IMG/VR virus record: IMGVR_UViG_650377940_000003
Location: 87,323 to 151,322 of that record
DNA from: a virus
Lineage: Duplodnaviria > Heunggongvirae > Uroviricota > Caudoviricetes
Reading direction: 5' to 3' (one strand)
Length of the DNA stretch: 64,000 bases
How positions within the stretch are numbered: the stretch's first letter is position 1; every line of letters starts with the position of its first letter. Made by a program: the position numbers and the translations under genes. The notes under the pieces were generated by a model. That model saw only the letters and a program-made list of their open reading frames with translations, was not told where the DNA came from and searched no databases. Shown one piece after another: positions 357 through 51,893 of the stretch.

Positions 357-635
357 TTAAGGCCACATATCCATTGAAAAGAAGTGCATGGGCTGTGTTC
401 TTGTACAGAGGCAGGCAAGTTTGTTCATATCTTTTGCGTAATAGCAATCTTGGGGACAAGGAACGTATGGTAGAGTTGCTGGCACGAAGGTACATGACAG
501 AGCCTGAGAATATTGTTGTAGATATTGAATTTAGAAATTGAGGTGATAAAGAATGACCGCGTTTATGATGTTTACTTTCAATGTGGCACTGATAATAGCA
601 GTGAATAGTAATCCGTTTGCATTTTAAGTGGAGAC

Positions 636-869
636 ATGAATATGAAAGAGCTGGAAGAAATTTACAATCGATTATATGATGAATACATTGACGCTAGACG
701 AGAGCATATTAAGTCTACTCTCGATATGAAAAAGAATGGTGACAGAATATATCTACATGGAAAAATGCATGGGTTAGAAATTGCTATTAGCATCGTCGAT
801 GAAGTGCTAAATGGGGATAAGGCAGAATGTATCAAGGAAGCTTTTGACGTAGACCCATATAAAACCTAA
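636..869 (+). CDS. hypothetical phage protein
   Basis: ORF with RBS; no motif recognised. Confidence 0.3.
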   Translation: MNMKELEEIYNRLYDEYIDARREHIKSTLDMKKNGDRIYLHGKMHGLEIAISIVDEVLNGDKAECIKEAFDVDPYKT

Positions 870-890
870 ATTCTTTGGAGGAAAAACTAA

Positions 891-1409
891 ATGATTATTA
901 CTATGTATCGAAGAAAATGGAAATTCTCGGTAATGAACGCAGAAGATGCAGAAAACTTTATCCGACAGCCACATTTTGAACGAATTCGGTTCATCTCAAT
1001 CACTGAAGCTAATGGTTATCATATTGATTTTCATAAGTGTAAGGGCAATATTACTTTTCTACCGCTGAAGTTTGATGATTGCACTACTGATTTAGAAGGC
1101 ACCTGTATCACTGATGTTCAAGCTAAGAATATCGTGAATTTTGTTCTGGACAACCATGAGGAAGATAAGACAGATTGGTTCTGCGTGAATTGTGGTGCTG
1201 GTAAATCAAGATCTGCAGCTGTGTGCGCTGCTGTTATGAAAATTCTGTGTAATGATGATATGCCGGTATTTACAAACAGCTACTTCGATCCGAATATGAC
1301 GGTGTACAGAGAGGTGCTAAATGCTTGGGTTAACCGTCTGTCTGATGAAAATGAAAGTGTTTCGACTGAGATACGGAATACTGTAAATAAAGATATAGTA
1401 GAGGAGTAA
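891..1409 (+). CDS. CX5R-motif phosphatase-like protein (PTP/DSP/rhodanese superfamily)
   Basis: Active-site-like loop C-G-A-G-K-S-R-S (CxxGxxRS) within FCVNCGAGKSRSAAV. Confidence 0.4.
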   Translation: MIITMYRRKWKFSVMNAEDAENFIRQPHFERIRFISITEANGYHIDFHKCKGNITFLPLKFDDCTTDLEGTCITDVQAKNIVNFVLDNHEEDKTDWFCVNCGAGKSRSAAVCAAVMKILCNDDMPVFTNSYFDPNMTVYREVLNAWVNRLSDENESVSTEIRNTVNKDIVEE

Positions 1410-1412
1410 AAC

Positions 1413-1676
1413 ATGAAATACACAAAGCGTGAAATCATTAGCGCATATCGAATTCTCACGAAGAATATTCAACAGAATGATCTCGGCTGGCGTGGAAAAA
1501 TGATTTTAAGTGATGTGCTTGATGACTATTTCAGCCGTATTGATGGTGAAATAGTTGTTGTCGATCCAAAGTATGGAAATTTTCGTTGTCCAAAATGCAA
1601 TACGGTAATTACGAGTAGGTATGATCACTATTGCAGAGATTGTGGTCAGAAGTTTGATTGGAGAGAAACAAGATGA
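1413..1676 (+). CDS. zinc-ribbon protein
   Basis: CPKC...CRDCG paired cysteine motifs. Confidence 0.35.
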   Translation: MKYTKREIISAYRILTKNIQQNDLGWRGKMILSDVLDDYFSRIDGEIVVVDPKYGNFRCPKCNTVITSRYDHYCRDCGQKFDWRETR

Positions 1677-2193
1677 AGATTGATTTGACTCTTAATGAAG
1701 CACGAGTAATCCAAGACGCACTTGATGCGACGAGCCTGTGCCGTTCTGGATGCTACATGGGTTACAAGAGTGGTGATGAGGATTTGTGTTTCAAACTTGA
1801 TAAGGATGGAAATTATCGCTGCAAGCTAATGCGAGAAATTGATTCTATCAATGGCAAGCTTGAGGATGTAATAAATAAAGGCCGATAAAATCCGGGTTCT
1901 TGTGGATACTTAACAAAAGGATGTGCAGACCGATGATATAACTATTGATGACGTAGGATTATTAGTAAAATTTTGGTAATTTTGATAATTGTGTTGAATA
2001 ATCTCTTTGTGCGGTGTATGCTTGAGACAACCTCAATACAAGATGGTCAAGCCAAAAGAATGTGAGGTTAATATAATGTGGATTATGATAATTTTACTTA
2101 TGGTATTGGATGCCGTGTACGCACTTAGTCTGTTAGGAGCGCTTTCCGATGCCGATGATCAGAGTGGGCGGCTGGAAATGAAACAGGGAAGGA

Positions 2194-2433
2194 ATGGTCG
2201 AAATGGATAATTTGAAACCGTGTCCATTTTGCGGTGGAGAAGTTACTATTGCAGAGGGCGGTTATCGCCAAACACGATGGATGTATGTTACGAGAGGAAA
2301 CAAAGAAAATAGGTGCAACTGCTATGTTATCATGGAAAGCAAAACTTACGACTTTGATTCCTCTGAAATGGAAAAAGCAAAAATTAAAGCCGATCTTATC
2401 GAAGCATGGAATAAACGGATTTATAAAAACTAA
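2194..2433 (+). CDS. Lar-family restriction-alleviation-like zinc-ribbon protein
   Basis: N-terminal LKPCPFCGG motif typical of small Lar-family proteins; 79 aa; in the phage accessory arm. Confidence 0.4.
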   Translation: MVEMDNLKPCPFCGGEVTIAEGGYRQTRWMYVTRGNKENRCNCYVIMESKTYDFDSSEMEKAKIKADLIEAWNKRIYKN

Positions 2434-2453
2434 GTTCTAATAGAGGTGATTCT

Positions 2454-3207
2454 ATGACAAGAAATGAATTGTTTGGAGCGTTATGCTTCCCAGAATATAG
2501 TTTTCTTCGGGAGAATGAGCATCTTGGCAAGCATATGATGTTCGTAACGGTCGGTGGCAGTCATGCTTACGGGACAAATGTTGAGGGCTCAGATCTTGAC
2601 ATTCGAGGTGTAGCATTGAATTCAAAAGAAGACCTTCTTGGTCTCGGTGAGTTTGAGCATTATGTGGACACTCAGACCGATACAACGATTTATAGCTTTA
2701 ACAAAGCTGTGAAATTGATGTGCAGTGGAAATCCCAATATGCTGGAACAGTTAGGAAATGCCGATGAACTCGTTATTAGCTATAACCCAATGACGCAGCT
2801 ACTTATGGACAACAAAAACCTATTCCTTTCAAAGCGTGTGATTTTACTCGTTTGGAGGTTTTGCAGGCAAGCTGATTCAGAAGTCTGATACATTAGACAA
2901 AGATCCAATCTACCATAATTCAAAGAAAATGCACAAGACGGTAATGAATGCAGTTCGTGTATACCTGATGCTCTTTGACATCTTGGAAAAAGGTGAAATT
3001 AAAACCTATCGAGACAATGATCATAACTTCCTGACGCAGCTTCGCAACGGTGAATATGATTACAAAGAGATTCGTCAGCAACTGATTCCGGCCTATGAAA
3101 GCAGATTGTCAGTTGACAAGAGCGAGACTTACCTGCCGGACAATGTTGATTGGAAGCGGGTCAACGAGCTTGTGATGACCGTAAATGAGGAGTCTTTAAA
3201 GATCTGA
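2454..3207 (+). pseudogene. nucleotidyltransferase (Pol-beta superfamily, GS..DxD motif) interrupted by an apparent 1-nt frameshift near 2842
   Basis: Frame 0 encodes GGSHAYGTNVEGSDLDIRGV (NTase motif) and decays to nonsense after ...LFLSKRV; frame +1 is open from 2842 with protein-like sequence FYSFGGFAGKLIQ... continuing into ORF 2929..3207; junction at T4 run 2842-2845. Confidence 0.5.
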
Positions 3208-3231
3208 TAAAACCAATATTTTTGAAAGGAA

Positions 3232-3858
3232 GTGATTCTTATTAACTCTAATTTGTTAATAAATCGTGAGCAAAGTATTGCTATTGTGTGTATAATGTGC
3301 CTGCTGGCGGGGAATCTTGTATCGAAGATCAGTCCGGTAATTCAGAATCATGGTGATTCATACCTTTATAATAATAGCCCTCCGGCAGTGAGTGTAGTGC
3401 AGCAAGAGGAAAAGGAGCCAGAAGTCATTGTAGAAACCGTTACTGAGATGCGGATTGTAAACTTTGGTCAGGGCAAACATAAACTCACTGATGACGAACG
3501 TGCTCTTGCGGAGCAGATCGTTGCTTGTGAAGCAGGTGCTGACAGTTTGGAAGGCCAGATGGCTGTGGCCCAATGCCTTTATGATTCCGCTGTACTTGAT
3601 AGTCTAACCATCCAGCAGGTCTTTAAGAAGTATGGTTATAGTTCCTTATATAATAGGAAGGTGACGGCAGAGAACGAACTGGCTGTGTCTATGGTGTTTG
3701 ATTACGGCGCTAAGATTTCAGACAAACCTATTCAATGGTTTGTAACCCCGGCGGCTGCTCCAGGCAGTTGGCACGAGCGCGGAGCAACCTTTGCTGGACA
3801 ATTTGGCGCACACAGGTTTTATTATGACGCGAAGCTGGTTGTGGATGATGCTGAGTAA
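3232..3858 (+). CDS. cell wall hydrolase, SleB/Hydrolase_2-like, with N-terminal TM/signal
   Basis: ERALAEQIVACEAGADSLEGQMAVAQCLYDS and C-terminal W..TP....G.H.FY pattern typical of SleB-type hydrolases; start codon uncertain. Confidence 0.55.
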   Translation: MILINSNLLINREQSIAIVCIMCLLAGNLVSKISPVIQNHGDSYLYNNSPPAVSVVQQEEKEPEVIVETVTEMRIVNFGQGKHKLTDDERALAEQIVACEAGADSLEGQMAVAQCLYDSAVLDSLTIQQVFKKYGYSSLYNRKVTAENELAVSMVFDYGAKISDKPIQWFVTPAAAPGSWHERGATFAGQFGAHRFYYDAKLVVDDAE

Positions 3859-3982
3859 ATGGCATCATCTAAAATTTTGATAAAGTAGCACAACAAAATG
3901 GTGTGGTACATATTGACGAAAACAAAAAGATGTGTATAATATATCTTGGAAGTTGTTTATGTGATCGGAAGGCGGTATTTCG

Positions 3983-4309
3983 ATGAGTGAGAAAAAGGTT
4001 TTGGGAGTTATACAGGTTGAGAACTTTTTGAAGTACATAAGAAAAAAGCGAGTGTGGGTCTGTTTTATTTGCAATGGTGTGGATGTTCACATGATCTGCA
4101 AAAAGATGGACGACATTGGCGTAGAGACGCATGGGATTGTCAAAGGCATTGGATTTTTTGGAAACGAAAGTCATATTGAGTTGCGGCAAGAATGTCACGA
4201 AGTAAGGAGGGTTGAGTTTAGGCCGGGCGATAAAGAGAAAGCGTATGAGATGATATTCGATAACACCAGCGTGTTCGTATCAGAGAATCCAGAGTTGTAC
4301 GGGCACTAA
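3983..4309 (+). CDS. hypothetical protein
   Basis: ORF with RBS; Cys/His rich. Confidence 0.25.
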   Translation: MSEKKVLGVIQVENFLKYIRKKRVWVCFICNGVDVHMICKKMDDIGVETHGIVKGIGFFGNESHIELRQECHEVRRVEFRPGDKEKAYEMIFDNTSVFVSENPELYGH

Positions 4310-4328
4310 AAATATTTTTGAAAACCTA

Positions 4329-4357
4329 TTGACTTCTGTAAAGGTATCCTGTATAAT
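4329..4357 (+). promoter_or_regulatory. consensus sigma70/sigmaA promoter TTGACT-17-TATAAT overlapping an inverted copy of the phage motif
   Basis: TTGACT at 4329-4334, 17-nt spacer, TATAAT at 4352-4357; drives the MazF-like gene. Confidence 0.7.
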
Positions 4358-4400
4358 ATAGCTATGGAACGGAGCTACACTATTATAGAGGAGAAAGACT

Positions 4401-4820
4401 ATGGACAACAATATTGACCCAAAGGTCGGAGAGGTTTGGTTGGTTGATCTATCCAATGCGACAGGTCATCAGCAGCGCGGTATTCGACCGTTCGTTGTGA
4501 CGAGCAACAATAAGCGCAACTTCTTTAGTCCAACAATTAAAGGGAATCCGTTGTCTTCCAGAATATACAAGCGCTCTCCGGTTCATGTTCTACTCTCAAA
4601 GGAAGATTGTGATTTCCTAGAGGTTGATAGTATCGTTCTATGTGAAGAGACTGATACACTTAACAAAGGACAGTTCATTAAAAAACTTGGTGTCTTGTCG
4701 GAGCGTCAGATGAATATGATCGCAATGGCAAGATGCAAGGATGAACCGTTTTTGCTTGCAGCATTCCTGAGCGGCGTACAACATACCATGGAATTTCAGA
4801 ATTTTGCCGCATTTGCTTGA
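4401..4820 (+). CDS. MazF/PemK/Kid-family endoribonuclease toxin homolog (solitary)
   Basis: GEVWLVDLSNATGHQQRGIRPFVVTS matches Kid/PemK signature GEIWLV.LDPT.GHEQ.G.RP..IV; no antitoxin-like ORF adjacent. Confidence 0.65.
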   Translation: MDNNIDPKVGEVWLVDLSNATGHQQRGIRPFVVTSNNKRNFFSPTIKGNPLSSRIYKRSPVHVLLSKEDCDFLEVDSIVLCEETDTLNKGQFIKKLGVLSERQMNMIAMARCKDEPFLLAAFLSGVQHTMEFQNFAAFA

Positions 4821-4873
4821 TTTTTTATAAGGTTTAATGGTACACTACATATAATAAGAAGGAGTGTGCCACT

Positions 4874-5800
4874 ATGCTTACTGAAGAAAAAATCAAAGCT
4901 TTTGCCGAAAAGTATTCTGATAGAAGCGGTGAGTTTGTTGCATCGACGATGCGTCACGTCATGGATTACGAGGCCGAGCGTGGGTATGAGTTGTTTGACT
5001 TCACAAAAGATGATTTCGTAAAGATGTTTGCCAAATATAATTGGGTGAATTCGAGTCGTTCGTTTAAAAATGTGAAGTCAATAATCACAGGCTACATCAA
5101 AAGTGAAAACGAAACAAGCATGTATGATCTGGCTGACTTTTCAGAGAGCGATGTAAGCGCAGATGATATGTACAATGACAGTTATTTTGCGTCGGTTGAC
5201 GAATTTGTTGACTTCTTAAATAAGTACGAAGAGCCATATCAGATTCGTATGAACGTAATTGCTGTTTTGTACTGGATTGGTCTTACTTCCGATGAGATTT
5301 CTAATCTAACAATTAACGATGTGGATTTTGAATCTAATACCGTTCTTGATAAGACTGATGTTGACGCAAGGTTAATGGATATTATCAAGCAATGTTACGA
5401 GATGAAACAGTATGATGCCCCCAATAAGAGCGGTTATAGAACATTTTATGTCATGAATGGCGATTATATCCTACGCAAAACGAAGGATAAACCCGGTGTA
5501 AACAGTGATCCAAAGACGTCTATAATTTCAATTCATGTCTATTTTTCGAGGTTGAACGATATCCTCGAAAAAAGGCATCATTCAAAAACCTTAGATCAAA
5601 GATATTTAGCCAGAAATTGTGAGTATATCAAGGTTTATAACTACTGTAAAACTCATCCAAAATTTAATCTTGCAGAACTTAGTTTCGGAAATGGTAAAGG
5701 TCCTCTTGCGGACATTATCGGAAGAAAGTGCAGTAAAGTTGCCTATCTTAGTTTCCGGCAAGGATATAAAGGTTGGGTTGAATATTTCCATGAAAATTAA
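4874..5800 (+). CDS. hypothetical protein with tyrosine-recombinase box-I-like segment (likely non-catalytic)
   Basis: IRMNVIAVLYWIGLTSDEISNLTINDVDF resembles integrase core-binding/box I region; no clear RHRY. Confidence 0.25.
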   Translation: MLTEEKIKAFAEKYSDRSGEFVASTMRHVMDYEAERGYELFDFTKDDFVKMFAKYNWVNSSRSFKNVKSIITGYIKSENETSMYDLADFSESDVSADDMYNDSYFASVDEFVDFLNKYEEPYQIRMNVIAVLYWIGLTSDEISNLTINDVDFESNTVLDKTDVDARLMDIIKQCYEMKQYDAPNKSGYRTFYVMNGDYILRKTKDKPGVNSDPKTSIISIHVYFSRLNDILEKRHHSKTLDQRYLARNCEYIKVYNYCKTHPKFNLAELSFGNGKGPLADIIGRKCSKVAYLSFRQGYKGWVEYFHEN

Positions 5801-5833
5801 AAACAGGGGGCTTCGGCCCCTTCATTTTAACAT

Positions 5834-5856
5834 GCTAACTATATAACACAGGATAC
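5834..5856 (+). promoter_or_regulatory. phage conserved motif copy (ACTATATAACACAGGATAC)
   Basis: One of 7 copies of core TAWWYACAGGATAC; 16 nt upstream of RBS of the Pnkp-ligase gene. Confidence 0.6.
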
Positions 5857-5877
5857 CTATTAGAAAGGGAGATGCAG

Positions 5878-8091
5878 ATGAGAACACTTTTACTGTTCCG
5901 TGGAGCACCCGGTTGCGGGAAGTCCACCTATATTAAAGAGCATAATCTTGAGCAGTACGTATTGAGTGCTGATACACTTCGCCTTATGTGCCAGAGCGCA
6001 CAGGAAACACCTGATGGGCAGATGGAGATTTCTCCGCAGAATGATGATGTTGTATGGGAGATGCTTTTCAAACTGCTTGAGGTGCGGATGAGCCATGGCG
6101 AGTTTACTGTGATTGATGCAACGAATTCCAAGACGGTCGAAATGAATTGTTATAAGAATCTTGCAAAACAGTATCGTTATCGGATGTATGTTATTGATAT
6201 GACGGACCTTCCGATCGAGGAATGCAAACGAAGAAACGCTCAGAGAGAATGGCTAAAGCGAGTTCCTGAAGCGGCTATTGATAAGATGTACGCTCGGTTT
6301 GCTACTCAAAAAGTTCCTTCTGGCGTGACAGTTCTTCCTTCTACTACGGATGTGATGTCCGATTTGAACTACTGCCCGAATGACTTTAACCAGTGGAAAA
6401 AGATACATATCATCGGTGATATTCATGGCTGCTATACCTGCTTGAGTGAATACCTTGGTGAGATGAAGGACGACGAGCTTTATATCTTCGTTGGTGATTA
6501 TCTCGATCGTGGCATCGAAAACGTTGAGGTATTCAAGTTCTTGTGTGATGTTGTAAATAACAACCGCAAGAATGTGATCCTTTTGGAAGGGAACCACGAG
6601 CATTGGCTGAACAAGTGGGGGCATGATAAACCGGTTCAAAGTGAAGAGTTTGCAAACTACACTCGTCCGCAGCTCTTTAAAGCCGGTATTGACAAGAACA
6701 CTGCTCGTAAGATCTATTCCAGAGTCGGCCAGTGTGTCTACTTTGAGTATGATGGTAAGCGGTATTTCGTAAGTCACGGTGGTCTGAGCTATCTTCCTTA
6801 TTTTCTTCCGTTCGTGTCTGCGGATCAGATGATTAAAGGCGTAGGCCGCTATCCTGATATACTGACCGTGGCTGAGTCTTGGGAAAAGTCGATGCCGGAT
6901 AGCTATATTCAGATCTTCGGCCATCGAAATGTACAGGATGTTCCTATTGATATGGGTCATCGGTGCTACAATCTTGAAGGCAAAATCGAGTTTGGTGGAT
7001 ATCTTCGTTGTGTGGAGCTTGAACACGGTCAGCCTATCAAATGCGTAGAAACCAAGAATGATGTATTCCGAAAAGAGGAGCCAAAGACTGAAACTGCCGT
7101 TGAAATGAAAACTGAGTTCGATAACGCAGAACTTGTTAGTAAGATGCGTCAAAGCAAATATGTGTTTGAGAAGCGATTCGGAGATATTTCTTCTTTCAAC
7201 TTCTCTCGTGAAGCATTTTATAAGAAGCACTGGGATGAGGTTTCTACCAAAGCAAGAGGGTTGTTCATTAACACAAAGACGAATAAGATTGTAGCTCGAA
7301 GCTATGATAAGTTCTTTGCGGTTGATGAGCGGAATGAAACGAGAATTGGAAACCTACAGAACACTTTGAAGTTCCCGGTGACTGCATATCTAAAAGAGAA
7401 CGGATTTCTTGGTATCATTTCGTATGATGCAGAACAGGATGGTCTGTTCATTGCAAGTAAATCCACTCCTGATGGGCCTTTTGCAGATATGTTCCGAAAG
7501 ATTCTCATGGATACGACTTCTGATGAAGATCGTAAGAATCTGAAAGAAGTTGCAAAAGAGAATGGCTCCATCATCTTCGAGGTGATTGATCCTGTGAATG
7601 ATGCACATATCATCGAATATAAGAAACCGCACATTGTTTTGCTGGATATTATTGCAAATGATATGAATTTCAGTGTAATGGATTATGATGATTTGAAGCG
7701 TGTAGCCGAGAAGTGTCATCTGCAGATTAAGGAGAAGGTTAAAACCTTTGAGAACTGGAGTGAATTCTATCCTTGGTACGAAGAAGTCATGAACGAGAAC
7801 TATCTGCATCATGGTTTTGAACACGTTGAAGGCTTTGTTTTGCGAGACAGCAATAATTTCATGTTTAAGCTGAAGCTTCCGTATTATAAGCACTGGAAGT
7901 TCTTGCGTGGTGTCATGCAGAGCGTTCAAAAACGTGGCTATTATGAAAATACCGCAAAGTTGTTTACTGCCGAGGATAACCTGTTCTATGGTTGGATGCG
8001 TGAACAACGAGAGAAAGATCAAGAGTCTTTCTGCAAGAAGGGTATTATTCAGCTGCGGAATGAGTTCTACGCAAGTCAGCAGAAGAGCTAA
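5878..8091 (+). CDS. trifunctional polynucleotide kinase-phosphatase-ligase (Pnkp/CthPnkp-like RNA repair enzyme)
   Basis: N-terminal P-loop GAPGCGKST kinase; central calcineurin-type phosphoesterase GDIHGC...GDYLDRG...GNHE; C-terminal nucleotidyltransferase ligase motifs KENG (I), IIFEVID (III), EGFVLRD (IV), FKLKL (V). Confidence 0.7.
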   Translation: MRTLLLFRGAPGCGKSTYIKEHNLEQYVLSADTLRLMCQSAQETPDGQMEISPQNDDVVWEMLFKLLEVRMSHGEFTVIDATNSKTVEMNCYKNLAKQYRYRMYVIDMTDLPIEECKRRNAQREWLKRVPEAAIDKMYARFATQKVPSGVTVLPSTTDVMSDLNYCPNDFNQWKKIHIIGDIHGCYTCLSEYLGEMKDDELYIFVGDYLDRGIENVEVFKFLCDVVNNNRKNVILLEGNHEHWLNKWGHDKPVQSEEFANYTRPQLFKAGIDKNTARKIYSRVGQCVYFEYDGKRYFVSHGGLSYLPYFLPFVSADQMIKGVGRYPDILTVAESWEKSMPDSYIQIFGHRNVQDVPIDMGHRCYNLEGKIEFGGYLRCVELEHGQPIKCVETKNDVFRKEEPKTETAVEMKTEFDNAELVSKMRQSKYVFEKRFGDISSFNFSREAFYKKHWDEVSTKARGLFINTKTNKIVARSYDKFFAVDERNETRIGNLQNTLKFPVTAYLKENGFLGIISYDAEQDGLFIASKSTPDGPFADMFRKILMDTTSDEDRKNLKEVAKENGSIIFEVIDPVNDAHIIEYKKPHIVLLDIIANDMNFSVMDYDDLKRVAEKCHLQIKEKVKTFENWSEFYPWYEEVMNENYLHHGFEHVEGFVLRDSNNFMFKLKLPYYKHWKFLRGVMQSVQKRGYYENTAKLFTAEDNLFYGWMREQREKDQESFCKKGIIQLRNEFYASQQKS

Positions 8092-8208
8092 ATTAAAAAA
8101 TAGACATTTTATCGTGATTTTCGTTAGAATAATTAACGAAGTATAGTGATATTTCTTCCTCCGAAAATGCCCTGCGCGGGGCTGACAGCCGGGAAAGACC
8201 GGCAATAT

Positions 8209-8293
8209 GGGGATATGGTGAAATTGGCAGCCACGCTTGATTCAAACTCAAGTGTCGAAAGACGTATCGGTTCAAATCCGATTATCCCTACCA
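8209..8293 (+). tRNA. tRNA-Leu (anticodon CAA)
   Basis: Hand-folded cloverleaf: acceptor GGGGATA/TATCCCT, anticodon loop TTCAAAC, long variable arm, T-loop TTCAAAT, CCA encoded. Confidence 0.75.
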
Positions 8294-8494
8294 TGAAGAT
8301 TAGTTGTTCTAGCTCGTTCGGGGATTGGCCGTACATTGGCGACCGGAAAGACGTCACACCGGTAAAGGACGTCAAGCCAGACAAGAAGAGAAATAAGGTG
8401 TAAGCCGACTAGCTATCGGATAAATACTCTTCGGTTCGCCAGAAAACTAGAATGTAAAACGAATGGTTGGCTGTTTCTGATCTTCTTTTTATAT

Positions 8495-8577
8495 GCGCCC
8501 GTGGTGGAATCGCAGACACAGGAGACTTAAGATCTTCTGCCAGAGATGGCGTGCGGGTTCAAGTCCCGCCGGGCGCA
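8495..8577 (+). tRNA. tRNA-Leu (anticodon TAA)
   Basis: Acceptor GCGCCCG/CGGGCGC, anticodon loop CTTAAGA, long variable arm, T-loop TTCAAGT. Confidence 0.7.
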
Positions 8578-8584
8578 TTTATAT

Positions 8585-8660
8585 CTGGGCGTAGCGAAGT
8601 TGGTATCGCACCTGTTTTGGGAACAGGGGACCGCAAGTTCAAGTCTTGTCGCTCAGACCA
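8585..8660 (+). tRNA. tRNA-Pro (anticodon TGG)
   Basis: C1:G72 acceptor typical of tRNA-Pro, anticodon loop TTTGGGA, T-loop TTCAAGT, CCA encoded. Confidence 0.7.
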
Positions 8661-8748
8661 GTCCGAAAGGGCATGTAGAATTTTTCATTCACATTATTCC
8701 CAGCTCTCTGGAAACGGAGCAGTGTGACGTAGTAAGCTGGGTATATGA

Positions 8749-8819
8749 TGCGCCATCGCCAAGCGGTAAGGCAGAGGACTTTGACTCCTCCATCACAGGT
8801 TCGACCCCTGTTGGCGCAA
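8749..8819 (+). tRNA. tRNA-Gln (anticodon TTG)
   Basis: U1:A72 acceptor TGCGCCA/TGGCGCA, anticodon loop CTTTGAC, T-loop TTCGACC. Confidence 0.65.
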
Positions 8820-8824
8820 TTTAT

Positions 8825-8906
8825 GCGGATATGGTGGAATGGCAGACACGCCAGATTTAGGATCTGGTGCTTCGGCGTGTGGGTTCGATGCCCACTATCC
8901 GCACCA
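8825..8906 (+). tRNA. tRNA-Leu (anticodon TAG)
   Basis: Acceptor GCGGATA/TATCCGC, anticodon loop ATTTAGG, long variable arm, T-loop TTCGATG, CCA. Confidence 0.75.
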
Positions 8907-9007
8907 CGGTCATGAATCGTTGTTGTTCATGGTTGAACTCCTTTGACCACTATTATTCCCGGCTCGCCAGTGATGGTGCAGTAGTGCTTTGTAAGCTGGG
9001 TTCTCAT

Positions 9008-9082
9008 GCAGCGGTCGTACAACGGCTAGTATATCAGCCTTCCAAGCTGAGGATGAGGTTTCGACTACCTTTCGCTGCTCCA
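9008..9082 (+). tRNA. tRNA-Gly (anticodon TCC)
   Basis: Acceptor GCAGCGG/TCGCTGC, D-stem GTAC/GTAT, anticodon loop CTTCCAA, T-loop TTCGACT, CCA. Confidence 0.6.
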
Positions 9083-9264
9083 ATTTCGTATGGGTAGGGA
9101 TTTTAAGCGGTCAGATCCGGCTGCGCCTGTGCGAGATACCACCCCGAAAGGGGCTAACGAAATTATCCATGTACGTTATTCTCGGTTCGCTCGAAAGAGT
9201 ACAGCGTGCCTTTGCAAGCCGAGCATCCCAGCCTAGTGATGCCAGTTGCTAGGTTGGTTCTTAT

Positions 9265-9340
9265 GCGACTGTAGTTCAATTGGCAGAGCGTCAGATTTCC
9301 AATCTGAATGTTGCGGGATCATACCCCGTCAGTCGCTCCA
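9265..9340 (+). tRNA. tRNA-like, second Gly(TCC)-type with atypical T-loop (ATCATAC)
   Basis: Acceptor GCGACTG/CAGTCGC, D-arm GTTC..GAGC, anticodon loop TTTCCAA, CCA; non-canonical T-loop, so possibly a pseudo-tRNA. Confidence 0.4.
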
Positions 9341-9567
9341 CACGCAGCCCCTTACGCTGCACCGGTTACTCAGAGCCGAAAGAAACCTATATGTTACGAC
9401 ATGGTTGCCAAGAGTGATCATATTGGAACGCGACGTAGCTTGGATAGTGAGAATTAAATTCTGAGGTATACGGCTGGATAGCTTAATGGTAAAAGCGCTC
9501 GGAAACGCCGAGAGATGAGGTTCGATTCCTCCGCTGGCATCGCGCCGACGAAAGTCGGCGTTTGCAT

Positions 9568-9644
9568 GGGATAGTAGCTCAGTTGGTCAGAGCTGGCGGC
9601 TCATAACCGCTTGGTCGCGAGTTCAAATCTTGCCTGTCCCACCA
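9568..9644 (+). tRNA. tRNA-Met/Ile2/fMet type (anticodon CAT)
   Basis: Acceptor GGGATAG/CTGTCCC, D-loop TAGCTCAGTTGGTCAGAGC, anticodon loop CTCATAA, T-loop TTCAAAT, CCA. Confidence 0.75.
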
Positions 9645-9747
9645 GCCCGATAGGGCATACATAAAATCTGCTAGAACTTTTGTTTTATAAGCGAATGAAT
9701 AATATGACGTTAATACGTCTATTATTTTTCGCTTATTTTCGGAGTTT

Positions 9748-9779: not shown

Positions 9780-11256
9780 ATGAAAACTGAAGCATTACGG
9801 AGATATCACACAACTCCATGGATGGCAGATTGAACCGGTTTCCTGTATCACAGGAGGCAGTCCCTGCCAAGATCTGAGTCAAGCCGGTAAACGTGAAGGT
9901 TTGGCTGGTGAACGCTCTGGATTGTTCCTTGAAATGATTCGTGTGATTACAGAAATGAGGGAGGCCACTAATGGAGAATATCCAAAATTCGCAATCTGGG
10001 AAAATGTCAGAGGAGCTTTCAGCTCAAGCAAAGGTGAAGACTTCAGATGTGTGTTGGAAAGATTTGCACGCATTGTCGAGCCAGACGTTTCAATTCCTCG
10101 ACCTTCAGGAAAGAACGGAAAGTGGGCAAAATCTGGAGCGATTTCCGGTAATGGATGGTCTCTTGCATGGAGATTGTTCGACGCTAAATACTGGGGAGTC
10201 GCCCAGCGTCGCCAGAGAATCGCGCTTGTCATGGATTTTGGAGGACAACGTGCCTCAGAAATTCTATTTGAGCGCACGAGCATGTCAGGGGATTCTTGTG
10301 AGAGCATCCCGGCGTGGAAAACCTTTGCCCGAACTCCTGAAGCAAGCGTTGCTGGATATGATCGAATGGTGGAATCCAGGAACTCTGTCACAGGTGGTGC
10401 AGAAAGTGAAGGAACAAGAAGGTCTGGAAGAGAAGGAATTGGACGAGTATTGGAGTCAGACCATCGAGAGACTTCGACTCGATGCACAGAACCTGCAGCC
10501 TACACTCTAAAAATCCGTTCTGGATGTGAAGGTGGCGGTAAAGGCGCTCTTGTTCAAACTGAATTGAGCGCAACGATTTCTACGTTACAAGACCAGACGC
10601 TGATTTGCTTGGCAGAAAATCCCTCCTTACATAATTTAAAACAAAATATTTCGCCGGTGGTGTTTGAGAGCCACAGTCAGGACGCTCGATACACTCAGCA
10701 GAGTGATACAAGTCCGACTTGTACTGCTCAGTGGGGAACTGGTGGCAATAATATGCCACTGGTCATTGAGAAGAAAGCCTTTGCGATGCAACGCATTGGT
10801 GAATACAAGGAAAGTGAACAGGCTAGTACGATGAAATCTCGTGACTACAAGGACGCTACTGACCTGATTACAGAGAAAGAAACGAAGAATCTACGATGGA
10901 TTGTTCGCCGTTTGACTCCTTTGGAGGATGAACGGCTTCAGGGGTTCCCTGATGGATGGACAGATATCGGTGACTGGATTGATGAGAACGAAAAGAAGCA
11001 TAAAACTTCTGACGCAGTTCGTTATAAGGCACTCGGCAATTCAATCGCATTACCGCAATGGTATTGGATTTTTCAGAAGATGAAATCGTATATCGGTGAG
11101 AATCCTACTCTTGGTAGCCTCTTCGATGGGATCGGCGGCTTTCCGCTAGTATTTCAAAGCACATATGGTGAAGGTACTGCCATTTGGGGGTCAGAAATTG
11201 ATAGCTTTTGCGTTGCAGTAACTAAGAAGCATTTTCCAGAAAAGCAAAGAGGATAA
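9780..11256 (+). CDS. C5 cytosine DNA methyltransferase, circularly permuted (motif order III/IV-VI-VIII-TRD-IX-X-I-II); ATG at 9780 is 1 nt out of frame (A4 run 9783-9786)
   Basis: Frame +1 from 9784: KLKHYGDITQL...GGSPCQDLSQAG (IV), ENVRGA (VI), QRRQRIALV (VIII), RRLTPLEDERLQGFPDGW (IX), KALGNSIALP (X), then LFDGIGGF (I) and SEID (II) before stop at 11256; RBS AAAGGAGGA precedes ATG 9780; deleting one A gives M-KLKHYGDITQL. Confidence 0.6.
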
Positions 11257-11578
11257 AAATGGGAGCTTTTATTGCAAGACAGCCTAACGGTTTGCTGTGT
11301 CGGTTTTCTTCGGTGGTCGATTGTGTCACCGATTACAACATGACCGAAGAAGAATATATCGAGATGTGTGCTGAAAAGGCACGAAAAGAAGCACGAGATG
11401 TTCTTGACCATTATATTAAGCCGTTTGAAATGGTTGACAGGTGTTTCTTCCCGAACAACATGACAATCGAAGAACACAAGCGGATTATGAAGGAAATGGA
11501 AAAGCCCGTTGACAAAGCAACTCATATTCCGTAATAAGAAAATCTCATAAAAGGCCAATTCAAACAAGAGGTGACACG

Positions 11579-11809
11579 ATGAATACCAAAATTCCTATCA
11601 ATGTAACCATTGATTCCGGTTCCTTGAGTCTTCCGGCGAGTCCAATTTTCCAGAAGGAAAAGAGCACATATCTCTGTCCGTTCTGTGTGACGAAGCTGGA
11701 GAAGCTTGAACCGAAATGTCCAGAGTGTCAACATAAAATGGATTGGGGTGTATGGATGGATAAGAATGCAAAGCACAATTATGCATTTGCTGAAAGTGGT
11801 GTGTTATGA
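11579..11809 (+). CDS. zinc-ribbon protein
   Basis: CPFC...CPEC pairs; RBS. Confidence 0.3.
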   Translation: MNTKIPINVTIDSGSLSLPASPIFQKEKSTYLCPFCVTKLEKLEPKCPECQHKMDWGVWMDKNAKHNYAFAESGVL

Positions 11810-12174
11810 AAGATTGGATGCACGCAAAGAAAAAAGAGATTGAGAACATGACTTTTGACCAAGCAAAGGAAATTGTAGAGAAACAAATTCGTCTTGGTAA
11901 AGAAGGCGGGCAATGGTGTCCTCGTGAGCATTTAACAAAGGCTCTCGAAATTATTCTTTCAAAAGCTGAACTTTATGAGTTTAGAACAGATTACAAAGAG
12001 CCTCTTCACGATGACGTTTATAAACGTTATGAGTGCCCGGTTTGTTATTACACACTATCAAATCTTGATAACTTCTGTCCACGTTGCGGACAATTACTTG
12101 ATTGGCGATTTGTAAGGCATTGGGAAAGAACGATTCGTCCCACGCTTGAAAGACTGCAGAATGGGGAGGTGTAG
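11806..12174 (+). CDS. zinc-ribbon protein
   Basis: CPVCYY...CPRCG; start overlaps previous stop. Confidence 0.3.
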   Translation: MKDWMHAKKKEIENMTFDQAKEIVEKQIRLGKEGGQWCPREHLTKALEIILSKAELYEFRTDYKEPLHDDVYKRYECPVCYYTLSNLDNFCPRCGQLLDWRFVRHWERTIRPTLERLQNGEV

Positions 12175-12473
12175 GGTTGAATATAGATTTCTTCCAACGG
12201 CGTAAGACTCAGCTTGAAGATGCACTTCTTTTGAAAAATCAGGCGGTCGATATGCTTGATTATCTAAAAACGCACTGCGTCAACAATGACCAGTATTGTG
12301 CAATTCGAGATTACATTGAAGAAGCTGCGAAGATTCTGGAGAGTGACCTCGAATACGCAAACAACAAGCTGCAGTCAGCATTCAGACCTAAGTATGGTCG
12401 GAACAGTAGACTGACTCGTGCTCAATCTAAGATGTTCCGTGATAGAGAGTATTAAAAATGGGGTGATGCCGCT

Positions 12474-27477: not shown

Positions 27478-28809
27478 ATGACAGATAAAGAGCTCATAGG
27501 TAAGCTTAATGCGATGGTTAAGGCATTGCAGAAAGCAAAGAAAAAGACGGACAAGACCCGCATTTTGTTGGATGCACGTAAGGATTTTGGAGATGAAGCT
27601 GACGAGCTAATGGCATTCTTCAAATTCCTGCTTGACCCAGCGATTGTGACTGGCCTGTCTGATGCAAAGATCAACAAGAAGGTAACGGCAAAGCCTGATA
27701 TCGATATTCAGTATCTCAGCTGCGGATACCTTTATATTATGGGTGCTGGGCATAATACTGGCTCTGATGCATCCATTGTAACAATCCAGAATTATTTACA
27801 TAAAAATCCTGAATACGAAGAGTTTCTGAAGCGACTGTTCACTAAGAACTTGCCGATTGGAGTCGAGGCAGCGACCATCAATAAAGTGTACGGCGAAGAG
27901 ATTATTCCAGTCTGGGAGGTCCAGCAGGGATATCCGATTGATAAGGTAAAGCTGAAGGATGGCATTTGGTTCAGTTTGAGCCAGAAGATGAATGGCAATA
28001 GGGGCACCATGTATAAAGGCGAGCTCATCTCTCGGCAGGCTCAGAAGTTTAAAGGGCTCGACCATATAAAGAATGATCTGCTCGCTCTATACGACGAAGA
28101 CGCCTCAAGGCGAGATGCGTGGGTGTTTGATGGTGAGCTGATCTACAAGAACCCAGAAAGAATGTCGGACGGAGAGGCTTTTCGTTATGGCACTGGCCTA
28201 CTTAATTCTGATAACAAGGACAAGACTGGAATCAAATTTGTGATTTTTGATGTGATTCCTGTTGTAGAGTTCGACCGTGGAAAGTGTACTATCCCATATA
28301 AAATTCGCCGTATTGGGTTAAATTGTCTTCGCGCAGAGATTACTCGCAAGCACCTTGAGAATATTGAAATTGTTCCAATGGTATATGAAGGTACTGACCA
28401 GAGTGTGATTCCGAAGTGGCTTGATTATGCTGTCGAACACGATTGGGAAGGTCTTATGTTGAACACGGATGTCCCTTATCGCCGGGCTCGTCACAACGGA
28501 TGTCTCAAAATCAAGCGATTCTATACGGTCGATCTGCGAATCACAGCGATTGAGGAAGGTCAGAACCGTCTGGCTGGTACGATGGGCGCTCTTGTTGTTG
28601 ACTACAAGGGTAACGAACTTCGTGTTGGTTCCGGTTTTGATGATGCTACGAGAGCTGCTGTGTGGGCGAATCCCGATAATTACATCGGTAAGATTGTGGA
28701 ATGTAAGTACAAAGAGGTCACGATGGACAAAAAGACTGGCCTTGAGTCTCTGCAATTCCCGACGTTTGTACGATTCCGAGATGATAAGAACGAAGTAAGC
28801 TACGGCTAA
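27478..28809 (+). CDS. ATP-dependent DNA ligase
   Basis: Motif I KMNGNRG, motif III FDGELI, motif IV FVIFDV, motif V EGLMLN and LKIK. Confidence 0.75.
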   Translation: MTDKELIGKLNAMVKALQKAKKKTDKTRILLDARKDFGDEADELMAFFKFLLDPAIVTGLSDAKINKKVTAKPDIDIQYLSCGYLYIMGAGHNTGSDASIVTIQNYLHKNPEYEEFLKRLFTKNLPIGVEAATINKVYGEEIIPVWEVQQGYPIDKVKLKDGIWFSLSQKMNGNRGTMYKGELISRQAQKFKGLDHIKNDLLALYDEDASRRDAWVFDGELIYKNPERMSDGEAFRYGTGLLNSDNKDKTGIKFVIFDVIPVVEFDRGKCTIPYKIRRIGLNCLRAEITRKHLENIEIVPMVYEGTDQSVIPKWLDYAVEHDWEGLMLNTDVPYRRARHNGCLKIKRFYTVDLRITAIEEGQNRLAGTMGALVVDYKGNELRVGSGFDDATRAAVWANPDNYIGKIVECKYKEVTMDKKTGLESLQFPTFVRFRDDKNEVSYG

Positions 28810-46985: not shown

Positions 46986-47058
46986 AATCAGAGCTTTGGT
47001 GTGGTATACTTATAGTGTCACATCAAGGCTCTTTATAATAAATGTAAGGAGTCTATTT

Positions 47059-48216
47059 ATGGAAAGACGTAAAGATAGTAAAGGTAAAGTCTTAAAAGAC
47101 GGCGAAAGCCAAAGAAAGGATGGAATATATCAATATCGATGGACTGATAAAACTGGAAAACGTCACACAATTTATGCGAAAGATTTAAAAGTTCTTCGAG
47201 AAAAAGAAAATAATGCTAACAAAATAATTTCTCAAGGGATAGATTTTGAAGGCGGTAAAATAACAACATATCAGTTTCTTATAAGATATTATGAATTTAA
47301 GAAAACATCAATAAAGAAATCGAGTTTGAAGACATATTATACAACGACAAACAAGTTGAAGGATACGTCTATCGGTAATACAAAAATTATTGACGTAAAG
47401 ATTTCAGACGCAAAACAACTGATTATTGATTTGAGCCAGAATGGATTGAAATACAGTACAATAAAAACTATAAAAACACTGATAAAAGCTGCATTTAAAA
47501 TGGCTCAAGAAGATGATTTAATTTTAAAGAATCCGTTTGATTTTCAGCTGAATGAAGTTATAAAAAACGACACTAAAAAAAGAGTCGCATTAACCGAACA
47601 ACAGTATTCTGATTTGCTTGAATTCGTTTTATGTGATCGAGTCTTTCGTAAGTATTATGATGACATCGTATTTTTGTATGAAACTGGAATTCGCGTAAGT
47701 GAATTTTGTGGATTAACACTTTCGGACATTGATTTTGTGAAACATGAAGTTGTAATTGATAAACAACTCATCAAAACCTCAAAAGGAGAACTCTACATCA
47801 CAGATCCAAAATCAAAAGCTGGGTTTCGGACGATTCCATTGAGCGCTGAGGCATATCACGCGATTAAAGCCATTATCAATCGTCGGCCACAAACAAACGA
47901 GATGATGGTCGATGGCTATTGTGGTTTCATCTCAATTCATTCAAATGGAACCCCGAAGACCGCTTGGAACATTGAATATGAGCTAAGAGAAATTGCAAAG
48001 GCGTATAACAGTCTTTACCCAGAGTGCCAATTACCAAATCTCACACCTCACGTTCTTCGACACACTTTTTGTACCAGAAAAGTTAGCAGCGGCATGAACA
48101 TCAAGGCAGTTCAATATCTAATGGGGCATAGCTCAGTACAAATTACACTCGATGTATACACGTCAATCGACGCTGATATGATAAAAACTGAATTCGCAAA
48201 AGTGGCACAGATGTGA
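47059..48216 (+). CDS. int: tyrosine recombinase/integrase (Tn916 Int-like)
   Basis: HVLRHTFCTR (HxxR) and LMGHSSVQITLDVYTS (catalytic Y); RBS TAAGGAG; marks the right prophage end. Confidence 0.85.
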   Translation: MERRKDSKGKVLKDGESQRKDGIYQYRWTDKTGKRHTIYAKDLKVLREKENNANKIISQGIDFEGGKITTYQFLIRYYEFKKTSIKKSSLKTYYTTTNKLKDTSIGNTKIIDVKISDAKQLIIDLSQNGLKYSTIKTIKTLIKAAFKMAQEDDLILKNPFDFQLNEVIKNDTKKRVALTEQQYSDLLEFVLCDRVFRKYYDDIVFLYETGIRVSEFCGLTLSDIDFVKHEVVIDKQLIKTSKGELYITDPKSKAGFRTIPLSAEAYHAIKAIINRRPQTNEMMVDGYCGFISIHSNGTPKTAWNIEYELREIAKAYNSLYPECQLPNLTPHVLRHTFCTRKVSSGMNIKAVQYLMGHSSVQITLDVYTSIDADMIKTEFAKVAQM

Positions 48217-48393
48217 GAGTTACTACACCAATCACTACACCAATTTTGGTGAAAATACGCCAAGATATGCAAAGATATGCCATACCATGCGGCACATAAT
48301 AGATTATTGAATACAAATAATTCACGAATTAACGTAATAAAATGTCAATATGTTAAAAAACTGAAAACTTTCTCATAAAAATTGCAAAACCCC

Positions 48394-48422
48394 TTGATTT
48401 TTCAGAGCAAGATGAGTACAAT
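48394..48422 (+). promoter_or_regulatory. groESL sigmaA promoter TTGATT-17-TACAAT
   Basis: Hexamers at 48394-48399 and 48417-48422. Confidence 0.6.
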
Positions 48423-48426
48423 ACAA

Positions 48427-48453
48427 TTAGCACTCAGAGAAAAGGAGTGCTAA
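48427..48453 (+). promoter_or_regulatory. CIRCE element (HrcA operator) TTAGCACTC-N9-GAGTGCTAA
   Basis: Perfect match to CIRCE consensus immediately upstream of groES. Confidence 0.9.
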
Positions 48454-48534
48454 ACCACTGCGGAGCACACACGAAGCCCCCGCAGGACACAACAAAGTTT
48501 CAAATAAATTCAATATAATTGGAGGGCAAGAATT

Positions 48535-48822: not shown

Positions 48823-48847
48823 AACTGAATTTTCCCTTTTCAATTGA

Positions 48848-50509
<1,662 letters not shown>

Positions 50510-50622
50510 TAGCTGCCAAAAAACCGCATGAATCCTTGGTTTTTGGAGCGTGCAAAAGCGGATTTACGCCAAACTTACGCCACTTACGCCAAAAATCAAA
50601 GCGCATTATAGGGTAACAGAAT

Positions 50623-50656
50623 CGGCACCCGCTGAAAAGCGGGTGCCGATTTTTTG
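50623..50656 (+). terminator. rho-independent terminator of groESL
   Basis: CGGCACCCGC-TGAAAA-GCGGGTGCCG followed by TTTTTTG. Confidence 0.8.
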
Positions 50657-51021: not shown

Positions 51022-51055
51022 GAATAGAAATAATCAAAAAGAGGCTGATAATATG

Positions 51056-51886: not shown

Positions 51887-51893
51887 CTTATAC

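Follow-up and report, generated by a model that had tools for sequence, protein, structure and literature searches.

Do a phage gene for an RNA repair enzyme and the transfer RNA (tRNA) genes that follow it form one device against tRNA-cutting immunity, or do two separate modules lie side by side? This question is raised by positions 5,878 to 9,644 of a 64,000-nucleotide stretch of viral DNA (positions 87,323 to 151,322 of IMG/VR record IMGVR_UViG_650377940_000003; the whole stretch is called the window), where a long open reading frame (ORF) precedes a cluster of tRNA genes. An earlier note on this DNA proposed that one protein combines kinase, phosphatase and ligase domains, and that this protein and the tRNAs together counter anticodon nucleases. 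The window is the right arm of an SPbeta-like prophage of about 135 kb with the adjoining flank of its host, the gut bacterium Faecalibacterium. We consider it probable that the gene product is a heal-and-seal RNA repair enzyme, in one chain, of an SPbeta-like temperate phage, and that the tRNA array is a separate module.

The repair enzyme gene and its predicted parts occupy the following positions:

5878 to 8091, + strand: trifunctional RNA repair enzyme gene, 737 amino acids (ORF list, ribosome-binding-site spacing, Pfam, PHROG 8238)
5878 to 6366, + strand: 5'-OH polynucleotide kinase domain, with P-loop GAPGCGKS including K17, catalytic D34, R37, D82 and lid residues R121 and R125
6394 to 7071, + strand: binuclear metallophosphoesterase domain of the 2',3'-phosphatase/cyclic phosphodiesterase type, with five motifs
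7078 to 7116, + strand: flexible linker (residues 403-415) that joins the healing half to the sealing half, the sole stretch with a predicted local distance difference test (pLDDT) score below 50
7144 to 7875, + strand: RNA ligase adenylyltransferase domain dependent on adenosine triphosphate (ATP), with R462, K480, K508ENG, E570, H579, E653-G654 and K666/K668
7876 to 8088, + strand: all-helical ligase C-terminal domain resembling that of Trl1-LIG (Rnl6), with Y672, W675, K676, R679 and GII-x-LR729-x-x-F

The + strand ORF here spans 5872 to 8091, and its first ATG (5872) would yield 739 amino acids. The ATG at 5878 is preceded by GGGAG at a spacing of 6 nucleotides, and a database cluster (P0001) that is 100% identical to the window enzyme has a length of 737 amino acids. 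The product is therefore likely to comprise 737 residues, so that the large single ORF of the earlier note stands, but not its length of 738. Residue numbers throughout follow the 739-residue translation.

Searches with domain hidden Markov models recovered the claimed kinase, phosphatase and ligase in one chain, each above its curated Pfam cutoff: AAA_33 at residues 6-144 (E = 2.6e-22), Metallophos at 177-355 (E = 2.5e-15) and RNA_lig_T4_1 at 460-672 (E = 4.2e-41, with the model covered end to end). Active sites were compared in an alignment of 70 full-length homologues of about 50% identity, and in a second set that includes the proteins of Twort and SPbetaL2. Among the 70 homologues, kinase residues G11, G16, K17, D34, D82, R121 and R125 are invariant and R37 is conserved in more than 90%; K17, D34 and R37 match the P-loop lysine, the general base Asp38 and Arg41 of the Clostridium thermocellum polynucleotide kinase. 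All five phosphatase motifs are likewise invariant, namely GDIHG (D183, H185), GDYLDRG (D209, D212, R213), GNHE (N241, H242), H302 and GH (H351). Invariant ligase residues are R462, K480-F481, K508-E-N-G, E570, E653-G654 and K666-x-K668, of which R462 and K480-F481 correspond in position to R54 and K75-F76 of T4 Rnl1. The four ligase motifs quoted in the earlier note are all present: KENG at K508-G511 (motif I), FEVID at 569-573 (motif III, with E570), EGFVLRD at 653-659 (motif IV) and KLK at 666-668 (motif V). That note had named the lack of a lysine-adenylylation motif as the observation that would tell against it, and the lysine in question, K508, is both present and invariant. Catalytic residues of all three domains are also kept in the Twort and SPbeta-like phage proteins. 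With three domains and intact active sites, the healing-plus-sealing set that had been proposed is complete.

The gene is under strong purifying selection. Its ORF is unbroken in 77 of 79 close relatives, and a comparison of the window with relative L068 gives a nonsynonymous rate (dN) of 0.065, a synonymous rate (dS) of 0.78 and a dN/dS ratio of 0.084. Per-domain ratios from this one divergent pair, the second pair being saturated at synonymous sites, are 0.04 for the kinase, 0.04 for the phosphatase and 0.13 for the ligase. In one relative (L063) a stop interrupts the gene at codon 408, inside the linker. Some relatives (clusters P0004, P0007 and P0008, with P0004 and P0008 being half-length proteins) have the enzyme divided at the disordered linker into two ORFs, the kinase-phosphatase half measuring about 434-471 amino acids and the ligase half about 420. 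Such divided forms suggest that the healing and sealing halves may act as separate proteins, as they do in T4.

An AlphaFold2 model derived from the alignment of 70 homologues has a mean pLDDT of 91.5, with disorder confined to linker residues 403-415. When predicted structures were compared, the phosphatase scored highest with the C. thermocellum Pnkp (CthPnkp) phosphatase (4j6o, 23.2), and ApaH and lambda phosphatase scored lower. The best structural matches of both the kinase and the phosphatase are to this RNA repair enzyme rather than to protein phosphatases, and Foldseek ranks them alike. The healing half is thus predicted to be closest to CthPnkp, which, as part of the Pnkp-Hen1 system, carries a homologous kinase and a homologous binuclear metallophosphoesterase. 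The similarity does not extend to the whole chain. The ligase of CthPnkp belongs to the Rnl4 clade, whereas that of the phage enzyme is Rnl6/Rnl1-like, and a scan of the flanking ORFs revealed no Hen1 methyltransferase beside the gene, whose neighbours are a MrpR-like gene upstream and tRNAs downstream. An equivalog of CthPnkp was accordingly considered and rejected: the TIGR04075 model gives 79.9 bits against a cutoff of 750, aligning residues 5-305 with positions 9-323 of its 851, the ligase clade differs, and Hen1 is lacking. The earlier description of the enzyme as CthPnkp-like consequently applies to its healing half, but not to its ligase, which appears Trl1/Rnl6-like rather than Rnl4-like.

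By sequence and predicted structure, the ligase seems closest to fungal Trl1-LIG (Rnl6), C-domain included, and less close to T4 Rnl1. It shares with T4 Rnl1 an adenylyltransferase in which motifs I, III, IV and V accompany an Rnl1-like N-subdomain, but lacks the C-terminal tRNA-specificity domain of the T4 type. Instead, about 65 additional residues aligned with Trl1-LIG form an all-helical C-terminal domain (residues 670-738), and a C-domain of this type placed after an Rnl1-like adenylyltransferase is the arrangement by which Rnl6 is recognized (PMC6379707). In an alignment with T4 Rnl1 (a sequence 100% identical to that in the T4 genome) and two Trl1-LIG sequences, three features are common to the phage family and Trl1 and are absent from T4 Rnl1, whose C-domain differs: a histidine at the position of CthLIG H227 (H579 here), a Y-x-x-W-[K/R] segment past motif V, and a C-terminal GII-x-LR-x-x-F in which R729 corresponds to CthLIG R389. 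The matched residues are H227/H579, Y333/Y672, W336/W675 and R389/R729. A profile of the C-domain, when searched against PDB, finds Trl1-LIG at the homologous position with an E value of 0.74, which is insufficient alone, and the Rnl6-type assignment therefore rests on predicted structure together with shared motifs.

The phage enzyme nevertheless differs from Trl1 as a whole, in which the order of domains is ligase, kinase and cyclic phosphodiesterase (LIG-KIN-CPD) and is thus reversed relative to the order found here, and in which the healing phosphoesterase is a 2H cyclic phosphodiesterase rather than a metallophosphoesterase. The T4 system differs in turn, as it employs two proteins (Pnkp and Rnl1) where the phage enzyme is one chain, and its phosphatase is a DxDxT/HAD enzyme (PMC3592404). 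In the literature that could be searched, the ligases discussed under the name Rnl6 are all eukaryotic (PMC6379707). The chimeric make-up, part CthPnkp-like and part Trl1-like, is a point of some novelty, and the link to Trl1-LIG bears on the origin of the eukaryotic tRNA-splicing ligase.

This resemblance raises the matter of which RNA ends the ligase would join. Fungal Trl1-LIG requires a 2'-phosphate that is read by H227, R334 and R337 (PMC11404444), a His-Arg-Arg triad acting at the 2'-PO4 site (PMC11404444, PMC6379707). If the phage ligase worked in the same manner, it would need a 2'-phosphate and leave one at the junction, the metallophosphoesterase would serve as a cyclic phosphodiesterase only, and a Tpt1/KptA enzyme would finish the reaction. 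The overall closeness to Trl1-LIG in sequence, predicted structure and C-domain speaks for such a scheme. So does the triad in part, since H579 is invariant where T4 Rnl1 has no counterpart, and the R337 position holds an invariant lysine (K676) with an additional invariant arginine (R679) nearby; the R334 position, however, is variable (K, N, R or H). The phosphatase also retains the full set of CthPnkp-type monoesterase residues, including the invariant H185, the counterpart of the CthPnkp histidine at which an H189D change limits that phosphatase to making 2'-nucleoside monophosphate (2'-NMP; PMC2190708). Moreover, no Tpt1 gene lies within 10 kb of the enzyme gene in any context examined, no co-occurrence of Tpt1 with the enzyme was found in GenBank phages, and the phages that do carry Tpt1 homologues belong to genera other than those bearing the enzyme. 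Such homologues occur in 98 phage records, mostly of Erwinia, Dickeya and Klebsiella jumbo phages. A KptA/Tpt1 gene is likewise present in C. difficile phages of about 131 kb (L175, phiCDIF1296T, 94482-95024 of the record), with no RNA ligase within 9 kb. We regard a Trl1-type mechanism as quite improbable, although, if it proved true, it would supply a natural substrate for bacterial Tpt1/KptA enzymes. The retained phosphatase residues, the lack of an accompanying Tpt1 and the occurrence of Tpt1 in other phage groups favour a T4/CthPnkp-type outcome, in which healing would leave a 2',3'-diol end and sealing would give a normal junction.

Enzymes of this kind are common among phages. The PHROG family phrog_8238 ('RNA ligase') covers residues 3-737 of 737 (E = 8e-227), and the window enzyme has the three domains of that family in the same order and every catalytic residue that is invariant within it. 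Its phage proteins share the full-length architecture, with 28-44% identity to the window enzyme over at least 93% of the length. A tblastn search matched 144 GenBank phage records, 113 of them at full length, mostly from Twort/K-like Staphylococcus phages but also from Lactobacillus, SPbeta-like Bacillus, Brochothrix (A9) and Fusobacterium phages; in these genomes, unlike in the window, no tRNA array directly follows the gene. In a large protein collection, at least 4697 clusters match at E <= 1e-10. Hundreds of them are full-length with the same three Pfam domains, and many of these bear the name 'AAA family ATPase' or 'RNA ligase' in assemblies of Lachnospiraceae and Oscillospiraceae. The claim that such a protein is uncommon in a phage therefore does not hold. 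The comparisons give good support to viewing the window enzyme as a sound and undamaged representative of predicted single-chain heal-and-seal enzymes, a family widespread in phages and Clostridia. The presence of the family in Twort-like Staphylococcus phages, which have therapeutic uses, as well as in SPbeta-like phages and many phages of gut Clostridia, adds to its interest, and a single 737-residue protein with named catalytic residues offers a concrete and cheap target for experiments.

Evidence on the substrate comes from more distant neighbourhoods, meaning the contexts of homologues that are only 50-54% identical to the window enzyme. In three jumbo-phage-like contexts (L085/L086, L087 and L171) the enzyme gene and the start of a 354-residue RlaP gene overlap, with a gene of the Thg1 family at a distance of 2-8 kb. 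Contig L173 carries RlaP and a CCA-adding enzyme 6 kb upstream of the enzyme gene, and L174 carries RlaP at the same distance upstream. RlaP appends one or two nucleotides onto damaged RNA 3' ends (PMC12776372), whereas Thg1 and CCA-adding enzymes repair the 5' and 3' ends of tRNAs (PMC7824862). This company, together with membership of an RNA ligase family and the existence of a separate ATP-dependent DNA ligase gene in the window (27478-28809), points to RNA, and particularly tRNA, as the substrate. An exclusive role in DNA end repair, which the earlier note had raised against its own proposal, is unlikely given that separate DNA ligase.

From these observations a working scheme can be drawn. 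A ribonuclease (RNase) of the metal-independent type would cut an RNA, most likely a tRNA, to leave a 2',3'-cyclic phosphate and a 5'-OH. The N-terminal P-loop kinase (K17, D34, R37, R121, R125) would phosphorylate the 5'-OH, and the metallophosphoesterase (D183, H185, D209, N241, H242, H302, H351) would open and remove the cyclic phosphate to give a 2',3'-diol. The C-terminal ligase would then react with ATP to form a ligase-adenylate at K508, adenylylate the 5'-phosphate, and join it to the 3'-OH. The tRNA array would act as a separate module in support of translation, chiefly for codons that are frequent in the AT-rich phage and rare in the GC-rich host, and might also replace host tRNAs that are sensitive to nucleases. 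We infer the tRNA substrate, the exact end chemistry and the purpose, which would be to keep translation running under RNase attack by the host or a rival element during infection. A counter-defence purpose is plausible and accords with the T4 paradigm, as well as with the established, published concept that phages pair RNA repair with a supply of tRNAs (PMC7824862). If tRNA is indeed the substrate, the family would represent a common phage answer to a rapidly lengthening list of tRNA-cutting defences, among them PrrC, VapC, PARIS, retrons, Cas13 and Schlafen-like nucleases.

Several findings weigh against this scheme. No tRNAs lie directly downstream of the enzyme gene in nine more distant contexts examined, although tRNAs occur within 7 kb upstream of it in four of them. 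In the 16 kb of host flank in the window no tRNA-targeting or anticodon nuclease was identified, the defence genes there being DNA-targeting or candidate systems only (restriction-modification, GmrSD and PDC-S31 types). The enzyme gene has no PADLOC entry, no biochemical study of any family member was found in the searchable literature, and some GenBank phage records label relatives 'serine/threonine protein phosphatase'. This last label accords with a rival reading, in which the protein would act as a Ser/Thr phosphatase/kinase or on DNA ends, rather than in RNA repair. The phosphatase domain does resemble lambda phosphatase, PP1 and PP2A in sequence, and DNA ends are additional in vitro substrates of both T4 Pnkp and CthPnkp. 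However, a domain of an RNA ligase family, complete in its nucleotidyl-transfer motifs, makes up the C-terminal third, the top structural matches of the kinase and phosphatase are to CthPnkp and not to protein phosphatases, genes for tRNA-end repair enzymes adjoin the enzyme gene in other phages, and the phage has its separate DNA ligase. A function outside RNA repair is therefore very unlikely indeed, and a heal-and-seal role remains our preferred interpretation of the gene.

The RNA elements downstream, as called by ARAGORN and Rfam, which both give eight tRNAs within 8209-9644, are these:

8209 to 8293, + strand: tRNA-Leu (CAA), from ARAGORN and Rfam (53 bits)
8494 to 8578, + strand: tRNA-Leu (UAA), from ARAGORN and Rfam
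8585 to 8660, + strand: tRNA-Pro (UGG), from ARAGORN and Rfam
8749 to 8819, + strand: tRNA-Gln (UUG), from ARAGORN and Rfam
8825 to 8906, + strand: tRNA-Leu (UAG), from ARAGORN and Rfam
9008 to 9082, + strand: tRNA-Gly (UCC), copy 1, from ARAGORN and Rfam
9265 to 9340, + strand: tRNA-Gly (UCC), copy 2, with a body unlike that of copy 1, from ARAGORN and Rfam
9473 to 9539, + strand: degenerate tRNA-like element, from Rfam (30 bits against a gathering threshold of 29), no ARAGORN call
9568 to 9644, + strand: tRNA with anticodon CAU (elongator Met or Ile2), from ARAGORN and Rfam

The eight tRNAs that had been reported directly downstream of the enzyme gene are thus confirmed by both callers; the first begins 117 nucleotides past the enzyme stop codon, and all eight lie on the same strand as the gene. 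The degenerate element has a 5-nucleotide anticodon loop and a mispaired acceptor stem, and is probably a decayed or pseudo-tRNA within the array. The CAU tRNA is not an initiator, because G1 and C72 pair. In four relatives (L005, L021, L052 and L073) it is replaced by a related UAU tRNA (Ile, reading AUA), which hints that the CAU tRNA may be of the Ile2 type. Like published phage tRNA arrays (van den Berg 2023, PMC10264068), the array consists of clustered canonical cloverleaves whose alleles vary in the anticodon loop. A weak consensus match to a promoter and another to a terminator flank the array:

8101 to 8130, + strand: promoter-like site TAGACA-18-TAGAAT, past the enzyme gene and ahead of the first tRNA
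9706 to 9719, + strand: terminator-like hairpin and T-run past the last tRNA

In a scan for promoters and terminators, the number of sites in the region did not exceed that in shuffled sequence.

In all 79 close relatives that have the region, the enzyme gene is followed by the tRNA array with the same order of anticodons. This conserved adjacency was considered as independent evidence for a joint function and set aside, because all 79 relatives belong to one lineage, so that it reflects inheritance, and because distant contexts lack it. What, then, is the array for? Published accounts read phage tRNA arrays either as codon compensation or as nuclease-resistant replacements (Bailly-Bechet 2007, cited in PMC10264068; van den Berg 2023, PMC10264068).

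The host could be identified for a test of codon usage. The GC content of the window is about 42% up to approximately 48 kb and 52-58% beyond, and the GroEL encoded after the phage integrase is 99% identical to that of Faecalibacterium metagenome-assembled genomes (MAGs), which indicates a Faecalibacterium host; nucleotide similarity to these MAGs is limited to 48377-50509. Codon frequencies per 1000 were compared between 44 phage ORFs and 39 host ORFs, the host sample being small (17.6k codons from four MAG loci):

CTA: phage 5.6, host 1.0
TTA: phage 7.1, host 1.5
CAA: phage 9.9, host 3.7
CCA: phage 8.6, host 4.2
TTG: phage 14.2, host 7.9
GGA: phage 14.3, host 9.4
ATA: phage 5.2, host 4.4, the only array codon not enriched in the phage

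Six of the seven array anticodons therefore read phage-enriched codons, and the three leucine tRNAs read exactly the three rarest leucine codons of the host, which account for 9% of host leucine and 35% of phage leucine. The anticodon set is biased to host-rare codons, as in the published arrays, and most of it is explained by codon enrichment without appeal to defence.

It is possible, and comes close to an even prospect, that the array serves codon compensation only and that its position beside the repair gene is incidental, both belonging to one zone of accessory early genes. By this means a phage that is AT-rich (42% GC) would, in a host of about 57% GC, supply tRNAs with U or C at position 34 for A- and G-ending codons. 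The identified host, the six enriched codons and the exact leucine set all agree with such a role, as does the lack of a directly downstream array beside distant homologues. Less easily accommodated are the unenriched ATA and the equally enriched A-ending codons AGA, CGA and TCA, for which the window array, within a window that covers part of the phage of about 135 kb, has no tRNA; the host sample is also small. Codon need alone also does not predict how the tRNAs themselves vary. For each anticodon slot, three to nine very different tRNA bodies occur among relatives whose repair genes are 84-100% identical in nucleotide sequence. Identity to the window copy is bimodal, at 96-100% or 55-80%, and shows no relation to how similar the flanking genes are. 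Neither the refilling of slots with bodies only 55-80% identical, in phages that share 85-100% identity in the flanking genes, nor the allelic differences at anticodon-loop positions 32, 33, 37 and 38 (relatives L003-L082) would be expected from codon usage.

Slot-wise exchange of this kind fits frequent recombination with a diverse pool of tRNAs. By analogy, it would also fit selection by nucleases that recognize tRNAs, as proposed for other phages (PMC10264068). Replacement of tRNA bodies slot by slot under a fixed anticodon order was not found described in the searchable literature and, like the chimeric enzyme, is a point of some novelty. The tRNA zone was also considered as uniquely hypervariable, a notion that was dropped because zones 600-3200 and 9800-12200 are equally patchy. 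Being one of several variable accessory zones is in keeping with codon compensation, and it is the slot-wise replacement that stands out.

These patterns could be combined into a two-layer defence of translation against tRNA-cutting immunity. An invariant enzyme, whose ligase would represent the Trl1/Rnl6 clade in a prokaryotic virus, would repair damage, while tRNA cassettes, with their order fixed by codon need, would be refilled time and again with unrelated bodies and changed anticodon loops, under selection by host tRNases for versions that escape cleavage. We consider this reading doubtful, and its extension, in which the Trl1-like ligase keeps a 2'-phosphate-dependent mechanism, less likely. 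Codon compensation explains the tRNA array at least as well as defence evasion does, and the two explanations are compatible. Caution is warranted for the tRNA half of the locus, as codon usage already accounts for most anticodons; the swapping of bodies lies outside codon usage.

Two further observations concern the tRNAs of relatives. In 17 of them (e.g. L024, L036 and L038, at about 10962-11035), the first glycine slot is occupied by a tRNA-like gene that ARAGORN calls His(ATG), with G33 and the loop TGATGAA. Some relatives also carry tRNA-Gln and tRNA-Met genes of 87-92 nucleotides in which the variable arm is long, an uncommon trait in tRNAs of such specificities.

The genes upstream of the enzyme raise a different possibility for its purpose. 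All relatives share, at about 90% identity, the block spanning 3200-8100, which comprises an ORF at 3232, an ORF of 108 amino acids, a PemK/MazF homologue, a MrpR-like gene and the enzyme gene. Its two recognizable members upstream of the enzyme gene are:

4401 to 4820, + strand: PemK/MazF-family endoribonuclease toxin homologue (Pfam 2e-19; PHROG 1936)
4874 to 5800, + strand: MrpR/YopR-like protein with a core-binding domain of the SPbeta master-repressor type (MrpR_N_CB, 20.8 bits, under the cutoff of 27; PHROG 5830), with syntenic homologues in L088, L089 and L174

The enzyme might be coupled to this MazF/PemK RNase of the prophage itself, encoded two genes upstream, and reverse or limit damage to needed RNAs when the toxin acts in host takeover, lysogeny control or phage exclusion. 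The products of MazF cleavage terminate in a 2',3'-cyclic phosphate and a 5'-OH, which are the ends that the enzyme would heal. The toxin homologue is preceded by its own near-consensus promoter-like site (4329-4357, 11 of 12 positions matching, in a scan whose overall site counts were no higher than for shuffled sequence). No recognizable MazE was found in the 3983-5800 stretch, where the 108-residue ORF upstream of the MazF homologue has no family hit, but this ORF could be an unrecognized antitoxin. The order of 108-residue ORF, PemK/MazF and MrpR-like gene also precedes the 50-54% identical enzymes of distant SPbeta-like Clostridia phages (L083, L088, L089 and L174). All PemK contexts are SPbeta-like, however, so that the linkage may be plain synteny, and the enzyme occurs without a PemK gene in Twort-like, SPbetaL2 and jumbo-like contexts. 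Coupling to the toxin is for these reasons improbable.

The MrpR/YopR-like protein adjoining the enzyme gene is itself one of the SPbeta-like traits of the phage, and homologues of YorF, YorH and YunG are encoded in related contigs. The replication module comprises PolIII-alpha, a RecD2-like helicase, a RecJ-like protein, the DNA ligase, NrdD and ThyX. The ends of 80 IMG/VR relatives, which come from contigs of about 125-137 kb, fit this prophage geometry. The junction with the host lies at approximately 48.3 kb, where a Tn916-type tyrosine integrase gene (46996-48216) is followed by host groES/groEL. Past groES/groEL, the host flank (within 46996-64000) contains a variable island, missing from the closest MAG, that includes:

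51002 to 51820: PDC-S31 candidate
52846 to 54861: type IIG-like methyltransferase
54861 to 58169: 1102-residue partner of the type IIG-like methyltransferase
58313 to 60100, - strand: GmrSD/HEC-06 type IV restriction enzyme
62260 to 63615: relaxase-like gene

Within the phage portion, an additional gene with a possible link to RNA repair lies 3 kb upstream of the enzyme gene:

2454 to 3207, + strand: RlaP-family nucleotidyltransferase, frameshifted (Pfam RlaP 5e-15; PHROG 388)

The window copy has one extra T in a T-run near 2843, whereas an intact protein of 250 amino acids is encoded in 24 relatives (e.g. L075, 4584-5336); the window version reflects either recent decay to a pseudogene or a fault in the assembly. 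Only about 30% of relatives have the RlaP region. Tpt1/KptA, RtcB and other repair genes were sought among the small ORFs of the window and none was found, the search returning only a Lar-like restriction alleviation protein (2194-2433; PF14354, E = 5.6e-8) in the same accessory zone as RlaP.

Positions 891-1409 encode a 172-residue protein with a cysteine-phosphatase signature, C-G-A-G-K-S-R-S (CX5R[ST]), and weak DSPc and Rit1 DUSP-like hits; a DSPc-like homologue occupies the same relative place in L088 and L089. On the other side of the tRNA array, an ORF at 9901-11256 with a TTG start encodes a C5 cytosine DNA methyltransferase, for which the Pfam match falls in two stretches and is limited to the model's C-terminal part. 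It is overlapped by long ORFs that lie in other frames, and no more than about 70% of relatives can be aligned in this region; rearrangement or truncation of the gene is possible.

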